A stretch of DNA of 64,000 nucleotides from Alphaproteobacteria bacterium (GCA_015062495.1 SUUN01000001.1:97069-161068); one strand, 5' to 3'. Shown: positions 2,709-61,720, counted from the stretch's first letter. The notes: a model not told the origin generated them from the sequence alone. Numbers and translations: made by a program.

Positions 2709-2975
2709 TTGCAGTATAAAACTTTTATTGGTACAATGACTGTTGTCAGCATGTGTTTTATGCTGGCGGGGTGTGGAAACCCTTTGTTGGCGTCGGAATA
2801 TTTGTTAATGGCGCAGATTGCGCTGTTTTTTATTGCGGCGGAAGTTACTCCTGACTGTTGGTCAGGAGGGTTGCGATATATATAAATAAGCACACAATTC
2901 CAACAATTGTTTCCAACCTCCTGGCCACCTTAGTTTTATGGTGGTTTTTTGAAATTGTACAAAAGGAGGAAGTCG
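2709..2975 (+). promoter_or_regulatory. Leader copy 0: sigma70 promoter (TTGCAG-N17-TACAAT, 2709-2737) plus a structured 5' leader related to the leaders at 10863 and 21274
   Basis: Shares CGGGGTGTG.AAACCC hairpin, mid-leader terminator (GCGCA-gat-TGCGC + T6), CTCCTGAC-loop-GTCAGGAG hairpin, conserved GGTTGCGATATATATAAATAAGCACACAATTC block, CAACCTCCTG anti-pairing segment and a second terminator (CCACC..GGTGG T6) before the RBS. Confidence 0.6.
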
Positions 2976-3430
2976 TGAAACAAAAACTAATATGTTTGAC
3001 AGTTGTGTTGTTGATGGTGTCTGATGCGGCGGCTGGTGTATATGGATGTGTTGCAGCCAGTGAACCGATACCAGCGCAATCAAGCAGATGTTCGGGAATG
3101 GACTGGAACTTGCTGAGCAGCAATTATCCATATTGGCAATATGGTGATGTTGTTGCTGGGTTTGCCAAGTGTGTTGGTGGTAGTAGTGTGACATGTACGT
3201 GTCGACAAATCTGGCCATATTTTAATGCAATGGGGGAATGGACTGCTAATGCCAGCAGTATAAACAGTCAATGTTCTGCGTCAACAACATCACTATCTGA
3301 TTGTTATACAAATTGTGCGCGTGCGTGCTTGGCGTCAATTGCGGATAATTATATTACCTGGGGTTATAATGATACTGGCAATCGATATGAATTACAAAAT
3401 ATATTGTCTTATTCCGTGTTTTATAAATAG
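2976..3430 (+). CDS. Small Cys-rich secreted protein (signal peptide), hypothetical
   Basis: GTG start 6 nt after AAGGAGG; N-terminal signal peptide MKQKLICLTVVLLMVSDAAAG; 12 Cys in the mature region; preceded by leader copy 0. Confidence 0.55.
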
Positions 3431-3447
3431 TAAATGGAGTTAATATA

Positions 3448-3846
3448 ATGAAAAAGTTGTTCGTTTTTTTTATGTTTTTGATGTCATGTGGAAATGCATT
3501 TTCGGTTGCGTGTTTGCAATATGATATTAGTGGTTGTTCCCAGTATTCGTCATCAAGTTATACAGACAGTACAGGTGTTACCGCAATGTATAAGTGCGGT
3601 GGTGGTGGCAATCGCGTTGATGTCGTTGGCATGTGTGGAACAGAATTGTCAGGTGGTGACATTGTTTACAACACAACAAATCTGAATGATAACAGCAGGT
3701 GTTTTTGTCGTATAACTTACCCTTTCTTGTCTGATTGGGTCGTTGCAGGCGGTGGGTGTTATAATCCATCCGCAGGAACAATAGGATGTGTTAGCGCTTG
3801 TGAAGCGTTGTTAAATTCTGGTACTAACTGGATATCGTATAAATAA
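3448..3846 (+). CDS. Small Cys-rich secreted protein, hypothetical
   Basis: 132 aa, signal peptide MKKLFVFFMFLMSCGNAFS, about 11 Cys; tandem with neighbours (17-nt gaps). Confidence 0.55.
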   Translation: MKKLFVFFMFLMSCGNAFSVACLQYDISGCSQYSSSSYTDSTGVTAMYKCGGGGNRVDVVGMCGTELSGGDIVYNTTNLNDNSRCFCRITYPFLSDWVVAGGGCYNPSAGTIGCVSACEALLNSGTNWISYK

Positions 3847-3856
3847 GGAGATTCTT

Positions 3857-4147
3857 ATGAAAAAAGTATTGCTTTTATGTTTTACTGTCTGTATGTTTGG
3901 CGCAAACGCAGCGGATTTACCAGCTTGCAGAGGGACGTTACAATTATGGCCAAATGTCGGGTATTATGAGTCATCTTGCCCCGCGGGAACGATTGAATTG
4001 GTTGTGGCGTCTTTGCCTTGTGAATATGCAAGCAGTGCTCAGACATGCGGCATGTTCGTTAATGATAATGGCGAAACAGATGTTTATATCGGAGAGGATG
4101 CTTCTGGCGTATTCGAAATATCTGGTTTTTGTGGACTGTCGCAGTAG
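3857..4147 (+). CDS. Small Cys-rich secreted protein, hypothetical
   Basis: 96 aa, AAGGAG RBS, signal peptide MKKVLLLCFTVCMFGANA, 7 Cys. Confidence 0.5.
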   Translation: MKKVLLLCFTVCMFGANAADLPACRGTLQLWPNVGYYESSCPAGTIELVVASLPCEYASSAQTCGMFVNDNGETDVYIGEDASGVFEISGFCGLSQ

Positions 4148-10862: not shown

Positions 10863-11142
10863 TTGAATTTATAACAACTATGGCGTATAATGAATGTGTC
10901 GTCGGGTGTTCCGATGACGGGGTGTGAGAACCCGTTCCTTTGCGTCTGAGAAATGTTATGGACGCGCCAAAGATGGCGTGTTTTTTGTCAGATGAAAAAT
11001 AAAAAAACTCCTGATACCCCATTGGGTCAGGAGGGTTGCGATATATATAAATAAGCACACAATTCAAAGGATTGTTCTCAACCTCCTGACCGTCAAAAAA
11101 ATGACGGTTTTTGTTTAACAAAAAAATCAGGAGATTGAACAA
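10863..11142 (+). promoter_or_regulatory. Leader copy 1: promoter TTGAAT-N17-TATAAT (10863-10891) plus a ~250-nt structured leader with two terminators and mutually exclusive pairings
   Basis: Hairpin ACGGG-GTGTGAGAA-CCCGT; terminator CGCGCC-aaagat-GGCGTG+T6 (10962-10986); hairpin CTCCTGAT..GTCAGGAG (11009-11033); GGTCAGGAGGGTTG can pair with CAACCTCCTGACC (11079-11091), which overlaps terminator 2 (GACCGTCA..TGACGGTTTTT, 11088-11112); SD CAGGAGAT then ATG. Confidence 0.65.
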
Positions 11143-11670
11143 ATGAGAAATAAACATATTTTTATTTGTGCCCTGTGTGCGACGTTTGTTGCGCCCGTGG
11201 CACATGGGGCAAGTTGTTTTTATGATGTTGATTGCGAAAGTACAAGTCCATCTGGGGGAATTACGATTGGGCTTACTTGTCCCACGATTACGGTTGGACT
11301 GAAAACGTATGTGGGTATCATGAAGCATTCGTTCACGCACACATGCAACTTTGTGTCTGGGTCGTTGTATGGTTCGTGTGGTCAATTAATTAATGCGGAT
11401 GTCCGTTATGCGTGCTGTCCAGGGTATTATGGCGAATGTAGCGATAATACCGATATTACGACGTGCAGTTGTTCACGATGTCCGCAGTTTAGCGATGCGT
11501 CTGGAACGGTTTATGGAACGACGGAGGGACCGGTGGCAGGAAACGCAAGCAGTTATTCTGGCAATGCCCCGTCCAAGACAGATTGTTATGTTCCAGCCGA
11601 CAAGGGATACGAGGATTCAGATGGGACAGGAACATTTGAATTTACGTCAAAATGTTATTATTCCAATTAA
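11143..11670 (+). CDS. Cys-rich secreted protein, paralog A (C-terminal ...TCSCSRCP...CY...GTGTFEFTSKCYYSN module)
   Basis: Signal peptide MRNKHIFICALCATFVAPVAHG; 16 Cys; C-terminal module shared with the 21552 and 29339 proteins. Confidence 0.6.
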   Translation: MRNKHIFICALCATFVAPVAHGASCFYDVDCESTSPSGGITIGLTCPTITVGLKTYVGIMKHSFTHTCNFVSGSLYGSCGQLINADVRYACCPGYYGECSDNTDITTCSCSRCPQFSDASGTVYGTTEGPVAGNASSYSGNAPSKTDCYVPADKGYEDSDGTGTFEFTSKCYYSN

Positions 11671-21273: not shown

Positions 21274-21551
21274 TTGAATTTGTGGCAACTATGGCGTATA
21301 ATTGTTGTGTCGTCGGGTGTTCCGGTGATGGGGTGTCGAAACCCGTTCCTTTGCGTCTGAGAAAAGAGTTTGAATGCGCCGATGCTGGGCGTGTTTTATC
21401 AGATGAAAAATAACAAACTCCTGATGCCAATTGGGTCAGGAGGGTTGCGATATATATAAATAAGCACACAATTCAAAGGATTGTTTCGAACCTCCTGACC
21501 GTCAAATGATTGGCGGTTTTTTGTTTAACAAAAAATCAGGAGATAGAACAA
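21274..21551 (+). promoter_or_regulatory. Leader copy 2: promoter TTGAAT-N17-TATAAT (21274-21302) plus a structured leader homologous to 10863-11142
   Basis: Same architecture as copy 1 with compensatory substitutions: ATGGG..CCCGT, GCGCC..GGCGT+T-run, CTCCTGAT..GTCAGGAG, conserved AT-rich block, CGAACCTCCTGACC, second hairpin plus T6, SD CAGGAGAT. Confidence 0.65.
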
Positions 21552-22229
21552 ATGAAAAAAAATTTACTGTTTGTGGTTGGGGCTGTGTGCTCGGTGGTGG
21601 CGTGTCCAGCAATGGGGGCATACAACTGTTATCAGATAGCGCAATCGTCAGAATATTTATGCGACGGTGCTTTGTCACAGTATCAGATAACGGGGGTGAG
21701 GCCAAGTTTGGATATGTTGGGTGGCGGTATGACGATGCCAGGTTGTGCCAGCAGTGATTATTTTGAATGTTGGGCATATACATCTGGCAGTAATACGGTT
21801 TATGTTCCGTGGTATGACTGTGATAGTTGTATGGCTGGATATACCAGAAAGTCTACAACCGCGCAAATGGGCGGATGTGGAAATGCCACATATTATTATT
21901 GCGAAGAAAATTGTACCGGGTGCAGTAATTGTACGTCTGATACGACGTGGTCCACAACGGGTACGGACGGATATGAAAAAAAGGTCACACGCACGTGCAG
22001 TTGTAACACGTGTATGATCAGCACTTCATATCGTTGCGCCGCCGGATATTATGGCAGTTCAACAAACGGTACATCGGGGTGTACGCGGTGTCCGTCGTCG
22101 GGTGGGGTCTATGGCACAAGTGCCGCAGGCAGTACCGCGATAACATCGTGTTATATTCCGTCTGGAACGTCGATGACAGATAGTGTAGGAACGTATGAAT
22201 ATACGTCAAATTGTTATTATAGCGAATAA
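21552..22229 (+). CDS. Cys-rich secreted protein, paralog B (C-terminal ...CSCNTC...RCP...CY...GTYEYTSNCYYSE)
   Basis: Signal peptide MKKNLLFVVGAVCSVVACPAMG; about 24 Cys; C-terminal module shared with 11143 and 29339. Confidence 0.6.
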   Translation: MKKNLLFVVGAVCSVVACPAMGAYNCYQIAQSSEYLCDGALSQYQITGVRPSLDMLGGGMTMPGCASSDYFECWAYTSGSNTVYVPWYDCDSCMAGYTRKSTTAQMGGCGNATYYYCEENCTGCSNCTSDTTWSTTGTDGYEKKVTRTCSCNTCMISTSYRCAAGYYGSSTNGTSGCTRCPSSGGVYGTSAAGSTAITSCYIPSGTSMTDSVGTYEYTSNCYYSE

Positions 22230-22258
22230 AAAATCCCCGTTTCCGGGGATTTTTATTG
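22229..22258. terminator. Bidirectional terminator
   Basis: AAAAATCCCCG-tttc-CGGGGATTTTTAT between convergent genes. Confidence 0.7.
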
Positions 22259-24962: not shown

Positions 24963-25003
24963 TGATTTATAAAAGGCGCATAATGTATATTATGTATAGT
25001 TTA

Positions 25004-25104
25004 GTGTGCTGTGGCACACGTAAACGTATACATAATATAGATAATTGTGGGCTTTGGTTTGTGTGTGTTTGCTGTGCTGTGGCACACGTAAACGTATACA
25101 TATA
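25004..25104. repeat. Two tandem copies (period 68 bp) of a palindrome-containing motif TGCTGTGGCACACGTAAACGTATACATA
   Basis: Identical 28-mers at 25007-25034 and 25075-25102; each contains GTGTGC..GCACAC and GTATAC palindromes. Confidence 0.6.
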
Positions 25105-25563
25105 CAATGCGAATGTGTTGAATAAGTTGATAGCCACTTCGTCGATCACGTCCGGATGAATTTGCCTTTCCCGACCGATGTGCAACAATAGATTCCGATC
25201 TGGTTAGTGTTTTGGTTTGATTTGTGGTACTATAATATTGATGATGGATTTGATTGTTTTTGTGATTTGATGAAAAGTTAAAGTTTTGTGTTGAAAGTTC
25301 TGGGCAATGATTTGTTATTAGGCTTATAAATCGATTTGGTCGATTTGTTGGTTTTTGGTTTTTTTGGGATTGTAAAATGTCCGAAAAATGGTGATTTGCG
25401 CCCTATTCTGGCCCAAAAAATCGAAAAAATGGCGGATTTCTGCGGGTTTGCGGGCGTTTGTGCGCCCGGCGGGGCGGTTTTTAGGGGCGTTTTTGGTGGT
25501 GGGGTGGGTGATTCTTTGTGGCGACGGTTGATTTTGCGATGTTGCTGGGCTAGAATAATGTGT

Positions 25564-53538: not shown

Positions 53539-53612
53539 GCGGGCGTGGTATAATGGTAGCACGTCAGCTTCCCAAGCTGAAGACGAGGGTTCGATTCCCT
53601 TCGCCCGCACCA
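53539..53612 (+). tRNA. tRNA-Gly, anticodon CCC
   Basis: Acceptor GCGGGCG/CGCCCGC, anticodon arm TCAGC-TTCCCAA-GCTGA (anticodon CCC), T-loop GTTCGATTC, 3' ACCA. Confidence 0.85.
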
Positions 53613-53956
53613 CGCTTGTCTTTTGGTTTGTTTGAATCGGGTATTCTCTCTTCTTCGTCTAAAACTCGTTGCTAATAACGCAACTCGTTAAGACTGCGAT
53701 ACGTTTGGATTCCCTTCGCCCGCACCAAGTTTAAAGTTGGTTGTGTTTGAGTCGGGTATCCTTGTGACGCACACATCAATTCGTTGCTAATAACGCAACT
53801 CATTGTGTGTTTATACACGCGGATTCCCTTCGCCCGCACCAAGATTGTCTTTTGGTTTGTATGAATCGGGTATCCTCTCTTCTTCGTCTAAAACTCGTTG
53901 CTAATAACGCAACTCGTTAAGACTGCGATACGTTTGGATTCCCTTCGCCCGCACCA
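53592..53956. repeat. Tandem array: 21-nt tRNA-Gly 3' end (GGATTCCCTTCGCCCGCACCA) repeated at 53707, 53821 and 53936 with ~94-nt spacers (period 114-115 bp)
   Basis: Spacers 1 and 3 nearly identical, spacer 2 diverged; each contains TCGTTGCTAATAACGCAACTCGTT-like palindromic segment. Confidence 0.8.
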
Positions 53957-54028
53957 TCCGCTTTCTCTGACGCTACAGCGAGATTGGGGGGTATCCGCTT
54001 TCGCTGACGCTACAGCGAGATTGGGGTT
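53957..54028. repeat. 35-bp direct tandem duplication (TATCCGCTTTC.CTGACGCTACAGCGAGATTGGGG x2)
   Basis: Two adjacent near-identical copies. Confidence 0.7.
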
Positions 54029-59708: not shown

Positions 59709-60368
59709 ATGGCAAAAATGACAGTAAATGAAGCTGCACAAATACTGGGGATTCCATTAAATGCAACCCGGGCCCAGTTAAAAAAAGCATATCGCGCGCT
59801 ATGCATGAAATATCATCCGGACAAAAATCCAGGTGATAAACATGCCGAAGAAATGTTCAAAAAAGTTGCTGAGGCTAATGAGGTGTTTCTAAAACATCTG
59901 GAACGTGGTGGAAACAGCAATCAAGGCAATGGTCAAAATCGTGGCGGGCAATCCAGCAATACTGGCACACGTCCAGGGGCGGATGGTGGAGCGCGTCCCG
60001 GGAATAATAATGGCGGTGGCGCGGGGCGTACGGGTTCGACCGGTACGGGGGCAAATGTAAATATAGATTCGATTTTGAAAACATTTTGGCAAAAGTATCA
60101 ACAGGCCAAGCGTGACCATGAAAACTTTATAAATGGTGAATTGGCCACGACGCGTCAAAAGGTAAAGGATACAGAAGCCAAGTTAGTACAGGCAGATAAC
60201 CTGGACAAGAAATTGGGCTATGTGCAAACGTTGCAACGTTTGCTGATGCAGGAAAAAATGCAGGTGGCGCGAGCTGTGATGCTGGCCAAAATGGCGAATA
60301 TGTATCTGAAACAGTATGAAGATGCCACCGCCAGATTTAATCGTAAAAATCAACAAGGGGGCAGATGA
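59709..60368 (+). CDS. J-domain (DnaJ-like) protein
   Basis: N-terminal J domain [20 protein letters not shown]; Gly-rich linker; C-terminal coiled coil. Confidence 0.8.
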
Positions 60369-61720
60369 TGACTAGTTTTATAACATGGCGAGCTGGTGAT
60401 GTAGAGAAGGCGATTTTTAATTTGTTAAAGCAAATGTTGCCAAATACAAAACTGCAAGATTTCGAAAAAAAACCAAATAGTGAGATTAGAGAGATAAAAC
60501 CACCACGTGATGGGATTGCGTATGTGGGTGAATATCTAATGGAAATGGCTATGACGGCTATACCTGGTATGGTCCGTTCGTTCGACAAGATAAAAATTGA
60601 ACAATATTGGAACAAGGACGGGAATTGTATTGGTTTTATGTTTCAAGGCAAAAAATATATGTTCGATAAGGAAAAATTGCCAGAGCGCGACCGGGAATTA
60701 GGGGGACAGATGACGGTGAATGATTCATGGGCAGAAAGAGTCGTGTCTTACTTAACAGGATTTTTGCCGAAACGAAAACTGGAAACATTTAGAAAAAATT
60801 ATTCAAAAGAGGACGTAATAGAGCATAATCCGCCTTTTAATGGTATTGCATATTCCTGTGCATACAGATGTCATACCATGGTGACCAAGCCAATACCCAA
60901 TAGGCGGGGCGAAGCGAAAAGCAGTTATGCAGATATTGTGCAGTATTGGGACAAGGACGGGAATTGCATTGGTTTTATGTTTCAAGGCCAAAAATATATG
61001 TTCGATAAAGAAAAATTGCCAGAACAAGGACAAGAAAAAAACACCCAAAGTCAAGATAACAAAGTGAACGTGTCGTTGGACAGTGATTTAGTTCGGGCGA
61101 TGACAAGGGCTGTGGGTGAAAATAATAATATGGAAATATATGGCACAGAAGTCTTGGCGATAGAGCCGGCAATTGATGGTGTCGCCTTTGCACAAAAGGC
61201 GCGAGGGGTTGCGGCTTTGGCACGACAAGGTTCGAGCGTAGTGGAAAAATCTGTTTGGTTTGATGCAGTACGTTTGTATGATGCCAAAGGTGCTTTTTTG
61301 GGGATGCAAGTCACGGATGACAAGCTTTTTAATGAGTATGATGTTTCTAATTCGGGCTTGGTCAAAGCAGATGCCAAGACAATGGAAATGATTAAAAATG
61401 CAAATAAAAAACTGGAAGCGGTTCGGGATGCAAATGGTAGTATAATCGGACTTGATTTAACTGCGTTATCTAAAAAGCAACAATTTGAACGAGGACAGGT
61501 ATTATTAACGACCACAAAAATTCCTGAAAACAGCGATATGGCAAGATTTGTTGCAGAACATCCTGGGGTAAAGGTGACTCACAGAGTCACCACGGCGGGC
61601 AAGTTAGTGTATAGTGTTGTGTATAAGTGGCCGATTGGGGGTGAAATTGTTGATTTTGACCAGGATGGCAAAGAAATCCGACGCATCGGTATCAAATCTA
61701 TGGAAAATCAGCGCGATTAA
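60365..61720 (+). CDS. Hypothetical protein with internal ~120-aa duplication
   Basis: [28 protein letters not shown] and [28 protein letters not shown] repeated modules; ATGA overlap with the J-protein gene. Confidence 0.5.

Follow-up and report, generated by a model that had tools for sequence, protein, structure and literature searches.

What is the function of the region between promoter and start codon of a gene for a Cys-rich protein, when almost the same region precedes a second gene whose product is only partly similar? This question is raised by positions 21274–21551 of a 64,000-nt stretch of DNA from Alphaproteobacteria bacterium (GCA_015062495.1, SUUN01000001.1:97069-161068), referred to here as the window. 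Coordinates are counted from its first letter, and the leaders and the genes directly behind them lie on the + strand. The region consists of a promoter and an untranslated leader (copy 2) upstream of gene B (21552–22229), and its counterpart (copy 1, 10863–11142) lies upstream of gene A (11143–11670). A real, structured cis-regulatory RNA, abundant in one clade of gut bacteria with reduced genomes, is strongly supported by the analysis below. We consider it probable that this RNA is a cis-acting, riboswitch-like transcription attenuator placed before a secreted-protein gene.

The promoter of copy 2 (21274–21302) is of the sigma-70 type, with a 10/12 match in the promoter scan. Its −35 box TTGAAT (21274–21279) and −10 box TATAAT (21297–21302) are separated by a 17-nt spacer, and the identical arrangement is found at 10863–10891. 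The distance from the TATAAT box to the first hairpin is fixed and conserved across the displayed members of the leader family. Transcription of copy 2 would start ~6–8 nt 3′ of the TATAAT box, and the leader is ~215 nt long. A Shine-Dalgarno (SD) sequence, AGGAG (21538–21542), precedes gene B, which has its own terminator at 22229–22254; the terminator in the leader of copy 1 is located at 11088–11109. The translated products of gene B (225 amino acids) and gene A (175 amino acids) are both Cys-rich and have a hydrophobic N-terminus. No match for the gene B product was found in a Pfam search.

Copies 1 and 2 were aligned from the promoter to the ATG codons (11143 and 21552). The mean column identity was 88%, with three small indels and a near-identical spacing of elements, which bears out the preliminary description of this region as a promoter-leader module. 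That description had also seen in the two copies a duplicated regulatory-plus-gene cassette with matching protein C-termini. The similarity between proteins A and B does extend over the C-terminal ~87 residues, to which it is confined, but amounts to only 37% identity. The leader, at ~88% identity, is therefore far better conserved than the genes behind it. This divergence already contradicts a recent segmental duplication of a promoter-leader-gene cassette, by which the likeness of the leaders would reflect recency or gene conversion and not RNA function. Such an event would account for the common layout and the 88% identity of the two copies, as well as for the similar gene 3′ ends and terminators (repeat family D6). 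However, the window holds four copies and not two, 217 distinct relatives are present in at least 36 assemblies, and the substitutions obey base pairing. A recent duplication is hence very improbable; the leader is conserved by selection before diverged genes and was not recently copied together with them.

In the pairwise alignment 43 columns differ. Nine of these lie in the tested helices and make up six base pairs, all six of which stay paired (three by double compensatory and three by wobble changes), in agreement with a constraint at the RNA level. Most of the remaining 34, all outside the tested helices, are found in loops and in a variable hairpin. The paired changes had been assigned to a stem ATGGG/CCCGT that replaces ACGGG/CCCGT of copy 1, but the C/T difference at 21329 is better explained as the closing pair of the 5′ hairpin P1h, which is G-C in one copy and G·U in the other (GU:90 and GC:5 in the family). 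The true double changes between the two copies are in a pseudoknot that had been overlooked, where GAGA/UCUC stands against CGAA/UUCG (21335–21341 with 21484–21490). Likewise, the hairpin with the GATGCTG loop (21376–21391), first taken for the terminator, turned out to be a variable insertion that is absent from several members, and the conserved terminator is at 21497–21524. In a more divergent third copy, 11 helix pairs are altered on both sides relative to copy 1, with pairing kept.

To date, 217 distinct members of the leader family have been collected from genomes and metagenome contigs by nhmmer combined with pattern anchoring. A hand-built structure was tested on an alignment of 97 canonical copies (A2) against shuffled and slid controls. 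Of all cells, 91.6% were paired, compared with 76.9% after shuffling and 36–53% in the slid controls. The covariation score was 0.438, compared with 0.165 for shuffled alignments (0/500 shuffles reached the observed value) and 0.06–0.10 for slid controls, and 30 pairs were altered on both sides. Mutual information with average product correction, calculated on the canonical set, recovered exactly the helices described below and no others; further long-range pairs were sought in the same way and none were found, with the conserved loop of hairpin g left without a partner.

The 5′ domain begins with P1h (21309–21316/21322–21329), in which all 7 inner pairs are altered on both sides and 94.9% of cells are paired; this hairpin covaries in the broad alignment, too. 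It is followed by hairpin S1 (21330–21333/21342–21345; pair types GC:70, GU:20, AU:6), with variants that include GGGG/CCC, GAGG/CCUC, GGAG/CUC, and AGAG/CUCU. The S1 loop, strand S2a (21335–21341), pairs with S2b (21484–21490), so that S1/S2 is an H-type pseudoknot with a first loop of one nucleotide. The four central S2 pairs are unpaired in 0/96 sequences and show 2–4 pair types each. An exact 6-mer complement of S2a was found upstream in 188/212 members, compared with 13/212 for the reversed-6-mer control, and most members of the broad family have the pseudoknot. The long-range helix c:c′ (21348–21353/21474–21479) covaries and gave the top mutual-information pairs. All 7 pairs of helix d (21354–21360/21399–21405) covary. 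This helix encloses the variable hairpin e (~21361–21398), which several canonical copies lack and in whose place most other members have a short loop. The energy model also predicts pairing of GGGG (21330–21333) with CUCC of the 3′ element described below. We treat this pairing as optional; variants with the second G changed to A keep the S1 pair (AU:6) and would break GGGG:CUCC.

The 3′ domain contains hairpins g and h. The stem of hairpin g (21444–21448/21464–21469, with one bulged C) covaries between subfamilies. Its loop, GAUAUAUAUAAAUAA in copy 2 and GAAUAnAnnGAAUAA in the family consensus, is the most conserved part of the family and may be read as two facing GAAUA strands around a variable four-base cap. 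Hairpin h (21469–21472/21480–21483) has one pair (323:342 in the broad alignment A4 of 147 sequences) that is AU in 95 and UA in 38 sequences. The intrinsic terminator T (21497–21524), located by the terminator scan, has a stem (21497–21503/21512–21518) followed by a U run; 92.6% of its cells are paired and 6/7 pairs covary.

Long-range compensatory changes of this kind, including those in the pseudoknot, only make sense at the RNA level. They speak against a DNA-level element such as an operator, a recombination site, or a second promoter in the TTGCGA...CACAAT core, even though this AT-rich core does not vary between the copies of the window and looks, by eye and below the scan threshold, like a weak TTGCGA-16-CACAAT promoter. 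A leader-peptide attenuator starting at ATG 21328 could explain why ATGGGG is conserved in ~90% of copies, but copy 1 has ACG instead of ATG, no SD precedes this ATG, and region c varies in length, so that no reading frame is kept across the family. We give a DNA-level element or a leader peptide hardly any credence, and rejected both, along with a T-box, for which no model match was obtained.

Three further strands link the two domains to the terminator: f (CUCCUGA, 21418–21424), f′ (GGUCAGGAGG, 21434–21443), and the 3′ element (CCUCCUGACC, 21491–21500). The partner of f′ is either f (21418–21424/21436–21442) or the 3′ element. The latter is the 3′ strand of the antiterminator and overlaps the 5′ arm of the terminator at 21497–21500. 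When f′ pairs with the 3′ element, the bottom of the terminator stem therefore loses GACC (21497–21500). Canonical members show no variation in f, f′, or the 3′ element, as is expected where one strand must satisfy two partners. Between subfamilies, the three strands change together (UGA/UCA/UGA compared with AA/UU/AA), and the triple of the second subfamily, to which a fourth window copy belongs, is CUCCAACC (f), GGUUGGAGG (f′), and CCUCCAACC (3′ element). Rarer types of the f′:3′-element helix keep the pairing as well (AUCGGGAGG/CCUCCCGAU, GCCGGAGG/CCUCCGGC, and GGGUUGGAGG/CCUCCAGCUC; CGA/UCG and GGC/GCC are among the changes). Over the 217 members, the four variable extension pairs of this helix are 94–100% paired and occur as AT, TA, GC, and CG. 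The f:f′ pairs covary in parallel with those of f′ and the 3′ element.

Two sets of helices were scored separately on alignment A4. The ON set (P1h, S1, S2, c, d, g, and f′:3′-element) was 85.3% paired, compared with 70.3% after shuffling, and its covariation score was 0.401 compared with 0.168. For the OFF set (f:f′, h, and T), the corresponding values were 94.4% compared with 83.7%, and 0.334 compared with 0.167. Each set exceeded every shuffle and every slid control. These results show that all tested helices exist and that the ON and OFF sets, which share nucleotides, are therefore mutually exclusive. Hairpin h and helix c:c′ probably exclude each other as well, because the h loop holds c′ with essentially no spacer, a geometric argument. 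The calculated energy of copy 2 was −74.6 kcal/mol with f:f′ and T enforced and −68.4 kcal/mol with f′:3′-element enforced, for nested pairs only and with the pseudoknot uncounted; the two values are close to each other. The isolated segment 21434–21502 folded as a three-way junction (−25.0 kcal/mol). As in terminator attenuators, a G+C-rich hairpin with a U run lies between promoter and gene, and a competing helix covers its 5′ arm.

The favored mechanism is as follows. In the ON fold, f′ (21434–21443) and the 3′ element (21491–21500) would form the closing helix of a three-way junction with arms g and h. As this helix takes GACC, the terminator could not form beside the U run, and the polymerase would enter the gene. 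In the OFF fold, f would act as an anti-antiterminator and capture f′ in a local hairpin, while the 5′ domain would capture c′ (the h loop) and S2b (the junction strand) through c:c′ and the S1/S2 pseudoknot. The terminator (21497–21524) would then form, and transcription would end ~28 nt before the start codon. Read from the sequence, the 3′ element has a toehold of 4–5 nt on f′ (21443–21447 with 21489–21492), which makes strand displacement of f plausible; capture of 21484–21490 by the 5′ domain would block this toehold. The three-way junction would represent the ON fold and, probably, the recognition module. The favored trigger is a small molecule or protein that would bind at the internal loop of g and the junction, stabilize the junction, and turn the gene on. 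We infer the default fold, the siding of the 5′ domain with the OFF fold in the window, and the signal that shifts the balance. The outcome would be coordinate control of 10–20 surface- or secreted-protein genes per genome.

In the relatives, this core is linked to various expression platforms. A terminator is present in ~90% of members, as judged from A4. The termite-gut members L109, L144, L156, and L203 are without a terminator, and UUGGAGG, the SD of the next open reading frame (ORF), comes after their 3′ element CCUCCA. This 3′ element is predicted to pair with either f′ or the SD. These members also appear to be without the 5′ domain, so that the three-way junction plus f constitutes the minimal switch. 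In members of the L107 type, f and the terminator are missing, and a second copy of S2a and c flanks the SD. Here c, c′, and the SD-adjacent copy covary in five variants (AAGUAAG, AACAUAG, ACAAAAG, ACAAAUAG, and GUAAAAG). L107, L131, L138, L145, L153, L160, and L226, from metagenome and viral loci, make up a phage-type sub-group located before Bro-N/ORF6N-like antirepressor genes, with the likeness of the products judged from their N-terminal sequences only. As in riboswitches, a structured domain backed by covariation is found on different expression platforms, and a single conserved core combined with several platforms is a hallmark of a cis-regulatory switch.

A same-strand SD and ORF lie ~20–110 nt downstream of the leader in 116/118 copies (genome-derived loci and window). 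The products have a median length of 158 amino acids, and 109/116 have a hydrophobic N-terminal core by a crude criterion. Their median Cys content after residue 25 is 6.7%, compared with 1.7% in the other ORFs of the window. The proposed functional tie between the leader and a Cys-rich gene is borne out by these numbers. The products fall into 18 BLAST clusters, mostly of orphan secreted-type proteins, and searches of Pfam and NCBIfam gave almost no matches. Matches were limited to a few Cys repeats of the ephrin-receptor-like or TNFR-like type, to Listeria-Bacteroides repeats, and, for one outer-membrane barrel, to the NCBIfam adhesin Adr. In the broader family, small helix-turn-helix (HTH)-regulator-like, antirepressor-like, and tail-fibre-like proteins also occur as targets, as judged by sequence only.

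Gene content also bears on the comparison with known regulatory RNAs. Processive antitermination RNAs (HK022 put, EAR, and LoaP-dependent leaders) resemble the leader in that a promoter-proximal structured RNA is followed by intrinsic terminators and by accessory, surface, or phage-type genes. The leader could be a ligand-independent element of this sort, or a kinetic co-transcriptional timer, that lets polymerase pass the terminator at a fixed rate with no sensed signal. Most canonical copies do hold terminator-like hairpins within the leader (e with a U run, plus T), and the genes are of an accessory type (secreted proteins, HTH regulators, antirepressors, an endonuclease island) and not of one pathway. 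However, two covarying, mutually exclusive folds and competitor strands would be superfluous in a constitutive element, and the targets are typically single short genes with their own terminator, not long operons. Moreover, no sequence or model match to put, EAR (which is in Rfam), or LoaP leaders was obtained, and the alternative pairings fit a local switch better than a modification of the polymerase. Antitermination without a signal is therefore unlikely. With riboswitches and attenuators, the leader shares a structured, sensor-like domain with a pseudoknot, an antiterminator and a terminator that share nucleotides, and an anti-antiterminator strand. Many copies per genome are also known from the T-box and c-di-GMP classes. 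Unlike members of the riboswitch classes, the leader belongs to no curated class, and its targets encode secreted, small HTH, and antirepressor proteins instead of functions in biosynthesis or transport.

At Rfam gathering thresholds, only tRNAs were detected in the window and in 16 diverse loci. When short stretches were analyzed by cmscan, RF02221 (sRNA-Xcc1, a small RNA) was the top Rfam match over the full model (1–87) in 4/4 members tested. The scores were 32.5 bits for L112, 30.0 bits for L107, 27.6 bits (E 0.0023) for copy 2 (21434–21508), and 32.9 bits (E 0.00015) for copy 4 (596–673), the best in the window; all of these (27.6–32.9 bits) are below the gathering score of 53 bits. The likeness was not seen in an E-value scan of 451 nt around copy 2 and appeared only with shorter stretches. 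The E-value scans revealed no other consistent family, and no match to a T-box or other curated cis-regulatory RNA. Searches of the junction against plasmids (BLAST) gave chance-level matches only.

In each RF02221 alignment, the closing helix of the model falls on f′:3′-element and its two hairpins, stems 2 and 3, fall on g and h, for all of which there is independent covariation. Both RNAs form a three-way junction in the same register, with a G-rich closing helix of 9–10 bp, a large-looped first hairpin, a short second hairpin, and a joining strand of 6–7 nt before the 3′ strand of the closing helix. For comparison, the sRNA-Xcc1 sequence derived by rapid amplification of cDNA ends was taken from the supplement of PMC2996969. 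Its closing helix is GGCCGGGUG/CACCCGGCC. In its first hairpin, AAUA...GAAAA flank a capped mini-stem, which resembles GAAUA...GAAUAA of the leader, and UGUUCAAG precedes the closing strand where the leader has GUUUCGAA (PMC2996969).

The contexts can be compared in the same way. In integron cassettes, sRNA-Xcc1 precedes symE in the same orientation (10.1101/2025.06.18.660453), and in APSE phages it is located upstream of an ORF6N protein gene (PMC7313666). The latter gene association is shared by the phage-type sub-group around L107. In Xylella, sRNA-Xcc1 is present in seven copies, five of them in tandem (PMC12189769). Both RNAs are found upstream of co-oriented accessory genes and may occur in several copies per genome, and the published sRNA-Xcc1 contexts agree with a leader role. 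The differences concern extent and host. sRNA-Xcc1 is reported to start at the closing helix, whereas ~125 nt of the leader precede the junction. Additional parts of the leader are a 5′ domain (P1h, S1/S2 pseudoknot, c, and d/e), a separate intrinsic terminator, and strand f as a competitor. sRNA-Xcc1 is known from Xanthomonas, Xylella, and APSE phages (integrons, phages, and islands), whereas the leader occurs in Alphaproteobacteria of the order Rs-D84, with Cys-rich secreted proteins as the main cargo. We regard the 3′ domain of the leader as a distant, sub-threshold relative of sRNA-Xcc1, and the leader as an enlarged variant.

This relationship raises the alternative that the element is a stand-alone gene for an enlarged, trans-acting RNA of the sRNA-Xcc1 type, with the terminated ~215-nt RNA as its product and an incidental position before the gene. 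Besides the in-register matches to RF02221, the detection of sRNA-Xcc1 as a discrete ~88-nt RNA (PMC2996969) is in line with such a gene, as is the bracketing of the element by a promoter and a terminator. For copy 2, the single match in the promoter scan (21274–21302) is found ~160 nt before the junction, which the covarying 5′ domain precedes. However, the gap between terminator and ATG is only ~28 nt, with no match within it in the promoter scan, and an SD and co-oriented ORF follow directly in nearly all copies. Furthermore, the antiterminator overlaps the terminator arm, and the terminator-less relatives overlap the SD with sequestering strands that covary. A mere sRNA gene consequently appears doubtful. 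The two readings are compatible, as a terminated leader could act in trans, too.

Several points weigh against a riboswitch-like attenuator. sRNA-Xcc1, the nearest known family, has been described as a trans-acting sRNA (PMC2996969; PMC6557892). The ligand or binding factor is a postulate, and start site, termination, and read-through are likewise predictions from sequence. The gene associations of the leader indicate no single metabolite or ion, and the downstream genes have in common no metabolic theme, which would be the usual hint at a metabolite. Most of the covariation among these three strands (f, f′, and 3′ element) comes from two major sequence types and therefore represents few independent events. 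Finally, the 5′ domain can be read in two ways: the nearest-neighbor model groups S2 and c:c′ with the terminator fold, and the ribosome-binding site of the L107 type would be released by these pairings. The sign of the effect of the 5′ domain may differ between platforms. With these points included, the attenuator is the interpretation we favor. Beyond it, we tentatively consider an orphan riboswitch class, in which an sRNA-Xcc1-type junction would serve as the aptamer for a global signal that switches on 10–20 surface or secreted genes, and sRNA-Xcc1 would be the minimal cis-regulatory form; this is possible, though not the likelier case.

The family is concentrated in one group of bacteria. 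Scanning of species-representative genomes with the invariant core yielded 99 loci in ~36 assemblies. Nearly all of these are from gut metagenome-assembled genomes (MAGs) labeled 'Alphaproteobacteria bacterium', 'Candidatus Enterousia', or 'uncultured Rickettsiales'. The host clade is the uncultured order Rs-D84, with genomes mostly <1 Mb (PMC12306168). One MAG has 14 loci, another 9, and a third 8, in genomes of <1 Mb; these numbers are lower bounds (at least 8–14 copies per genome). A metagenome scan that excluded the canonical sequence type gave at least 120 additional loci, in samples that included human gut, rumen, and termite gut. Among the 120 metagenome loci listed, 43 have housekeeping DNA 67–80% identical to that of Rs-D84 loci (blastn) and therefore belong to the same broad clade. 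The motif was found in only 8 of 2.9 million viral contigs, and a phage-associated member had no match in a BLAST search against phage genomes. Leaders of the canonical type were also found on contigs of two assemblies labeled Bacteroides fragilis (L033) and Muribaculaceae (L091). Because this leader type is otherwise found in alphaproteobacterial MAGs, both contigs are probably mis-binned. In a search of the literature, no description of the Rs-D84 leader was found.

In the window, copy 2 is located between housekeeping genes (hisS and prfA) and a gene for an autotransporter-domain protein; the window carries ordinary housekeeping genes, including the one for the alphaproteobacterial regulator GcrA. 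Copy 3 (2709–3430 with its first gene; nhmmer E 5.8e-41), located by motif search and repeat search, has a promoter TTGCAG-17-TACAAT at 2709–2737, assigned by eye, and a leader extending to 2974. It heads three consecutive small Cys-rich ORFs (2975–3430, 3448–3846, and 3857–4147) with signal-peptide-like N-termini, none of which matched Pfam. This arrangement suggests that the leader can govern short operons as well as single genes. Copy 4 (505–927 with its gene) was found by profile search; its leader at ~505–708 precedes an ORF for a 72-amino-acid membrane protein (709–927).

Copy 4 lies within a 1.65-kb insert flanked by tRNA-Arg. A 40-nt exact direct repeat (434–473 and 2082–2121), consisting of the last 5 nt of tRNA-Arg(TCT) and its terminator, brackets this insert (474–2081). 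Apart from copy 4 and its ORF, the insert encodes a 382-amino-acid protein with an Mrr-type restriction-endonuclease domain (928–2076), and it looks like a small island integrated at the 3′ end of the tRNA gene. A tRNA gene is found within ~100–700 nt of copy 4 and of the members L112, L113, and L199, which precede small HTH-like proteins. Their position suggests that, in elements integrated at tRNA genes, such members stand at the first gene.

Other repeats were noted in the window. Three further occurrences of GGATTCCCTTCGCCCGCACCA, the 3′ end of tRNA-Gly(CCC), are spaced at ~115 nt (53708, 53823, and 53937; region 53591–54026). Each recurrence is preceded by a ~95-nt unit, and a 34-nt tandem pair follows (53956–54026). 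They may represent att-site remnants that serial integrations stacked up, or another kind of repeat array. Two 36-nt repeats (24999–25034 and 25067–25102), 68 nt apart and each with the palindrome GTGTGCTGTGGCACAC, are intergenic, 5′ of the ORF at 25336, and could form an operator pair. An 89-nt repeat, 92% identical (60596–60684 and 60935–61023), within a 451-amino-acid ORF without a Pfam match (60365–61720) indicates that this ORF encodes an internally repeated protein.

A diverse alignment of 217 members, a double long-range architecture, and three kinds of platform are the usual start for the discovery of a ligand or regulator. The link to sRNA-Xcc1 suggests that this RNA, annotated in many pathogens and mobile elements, could be reinterpreted as a cis-acting leader. 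For the bacteria themselves, one RNA element heads at least 8–14 genes per genome, nearly all of which encode small Cys-rich proteins with secretion-type N-termini. The leader may therefore control how Rs-D84 bacteria present their surface to host or partner cells.

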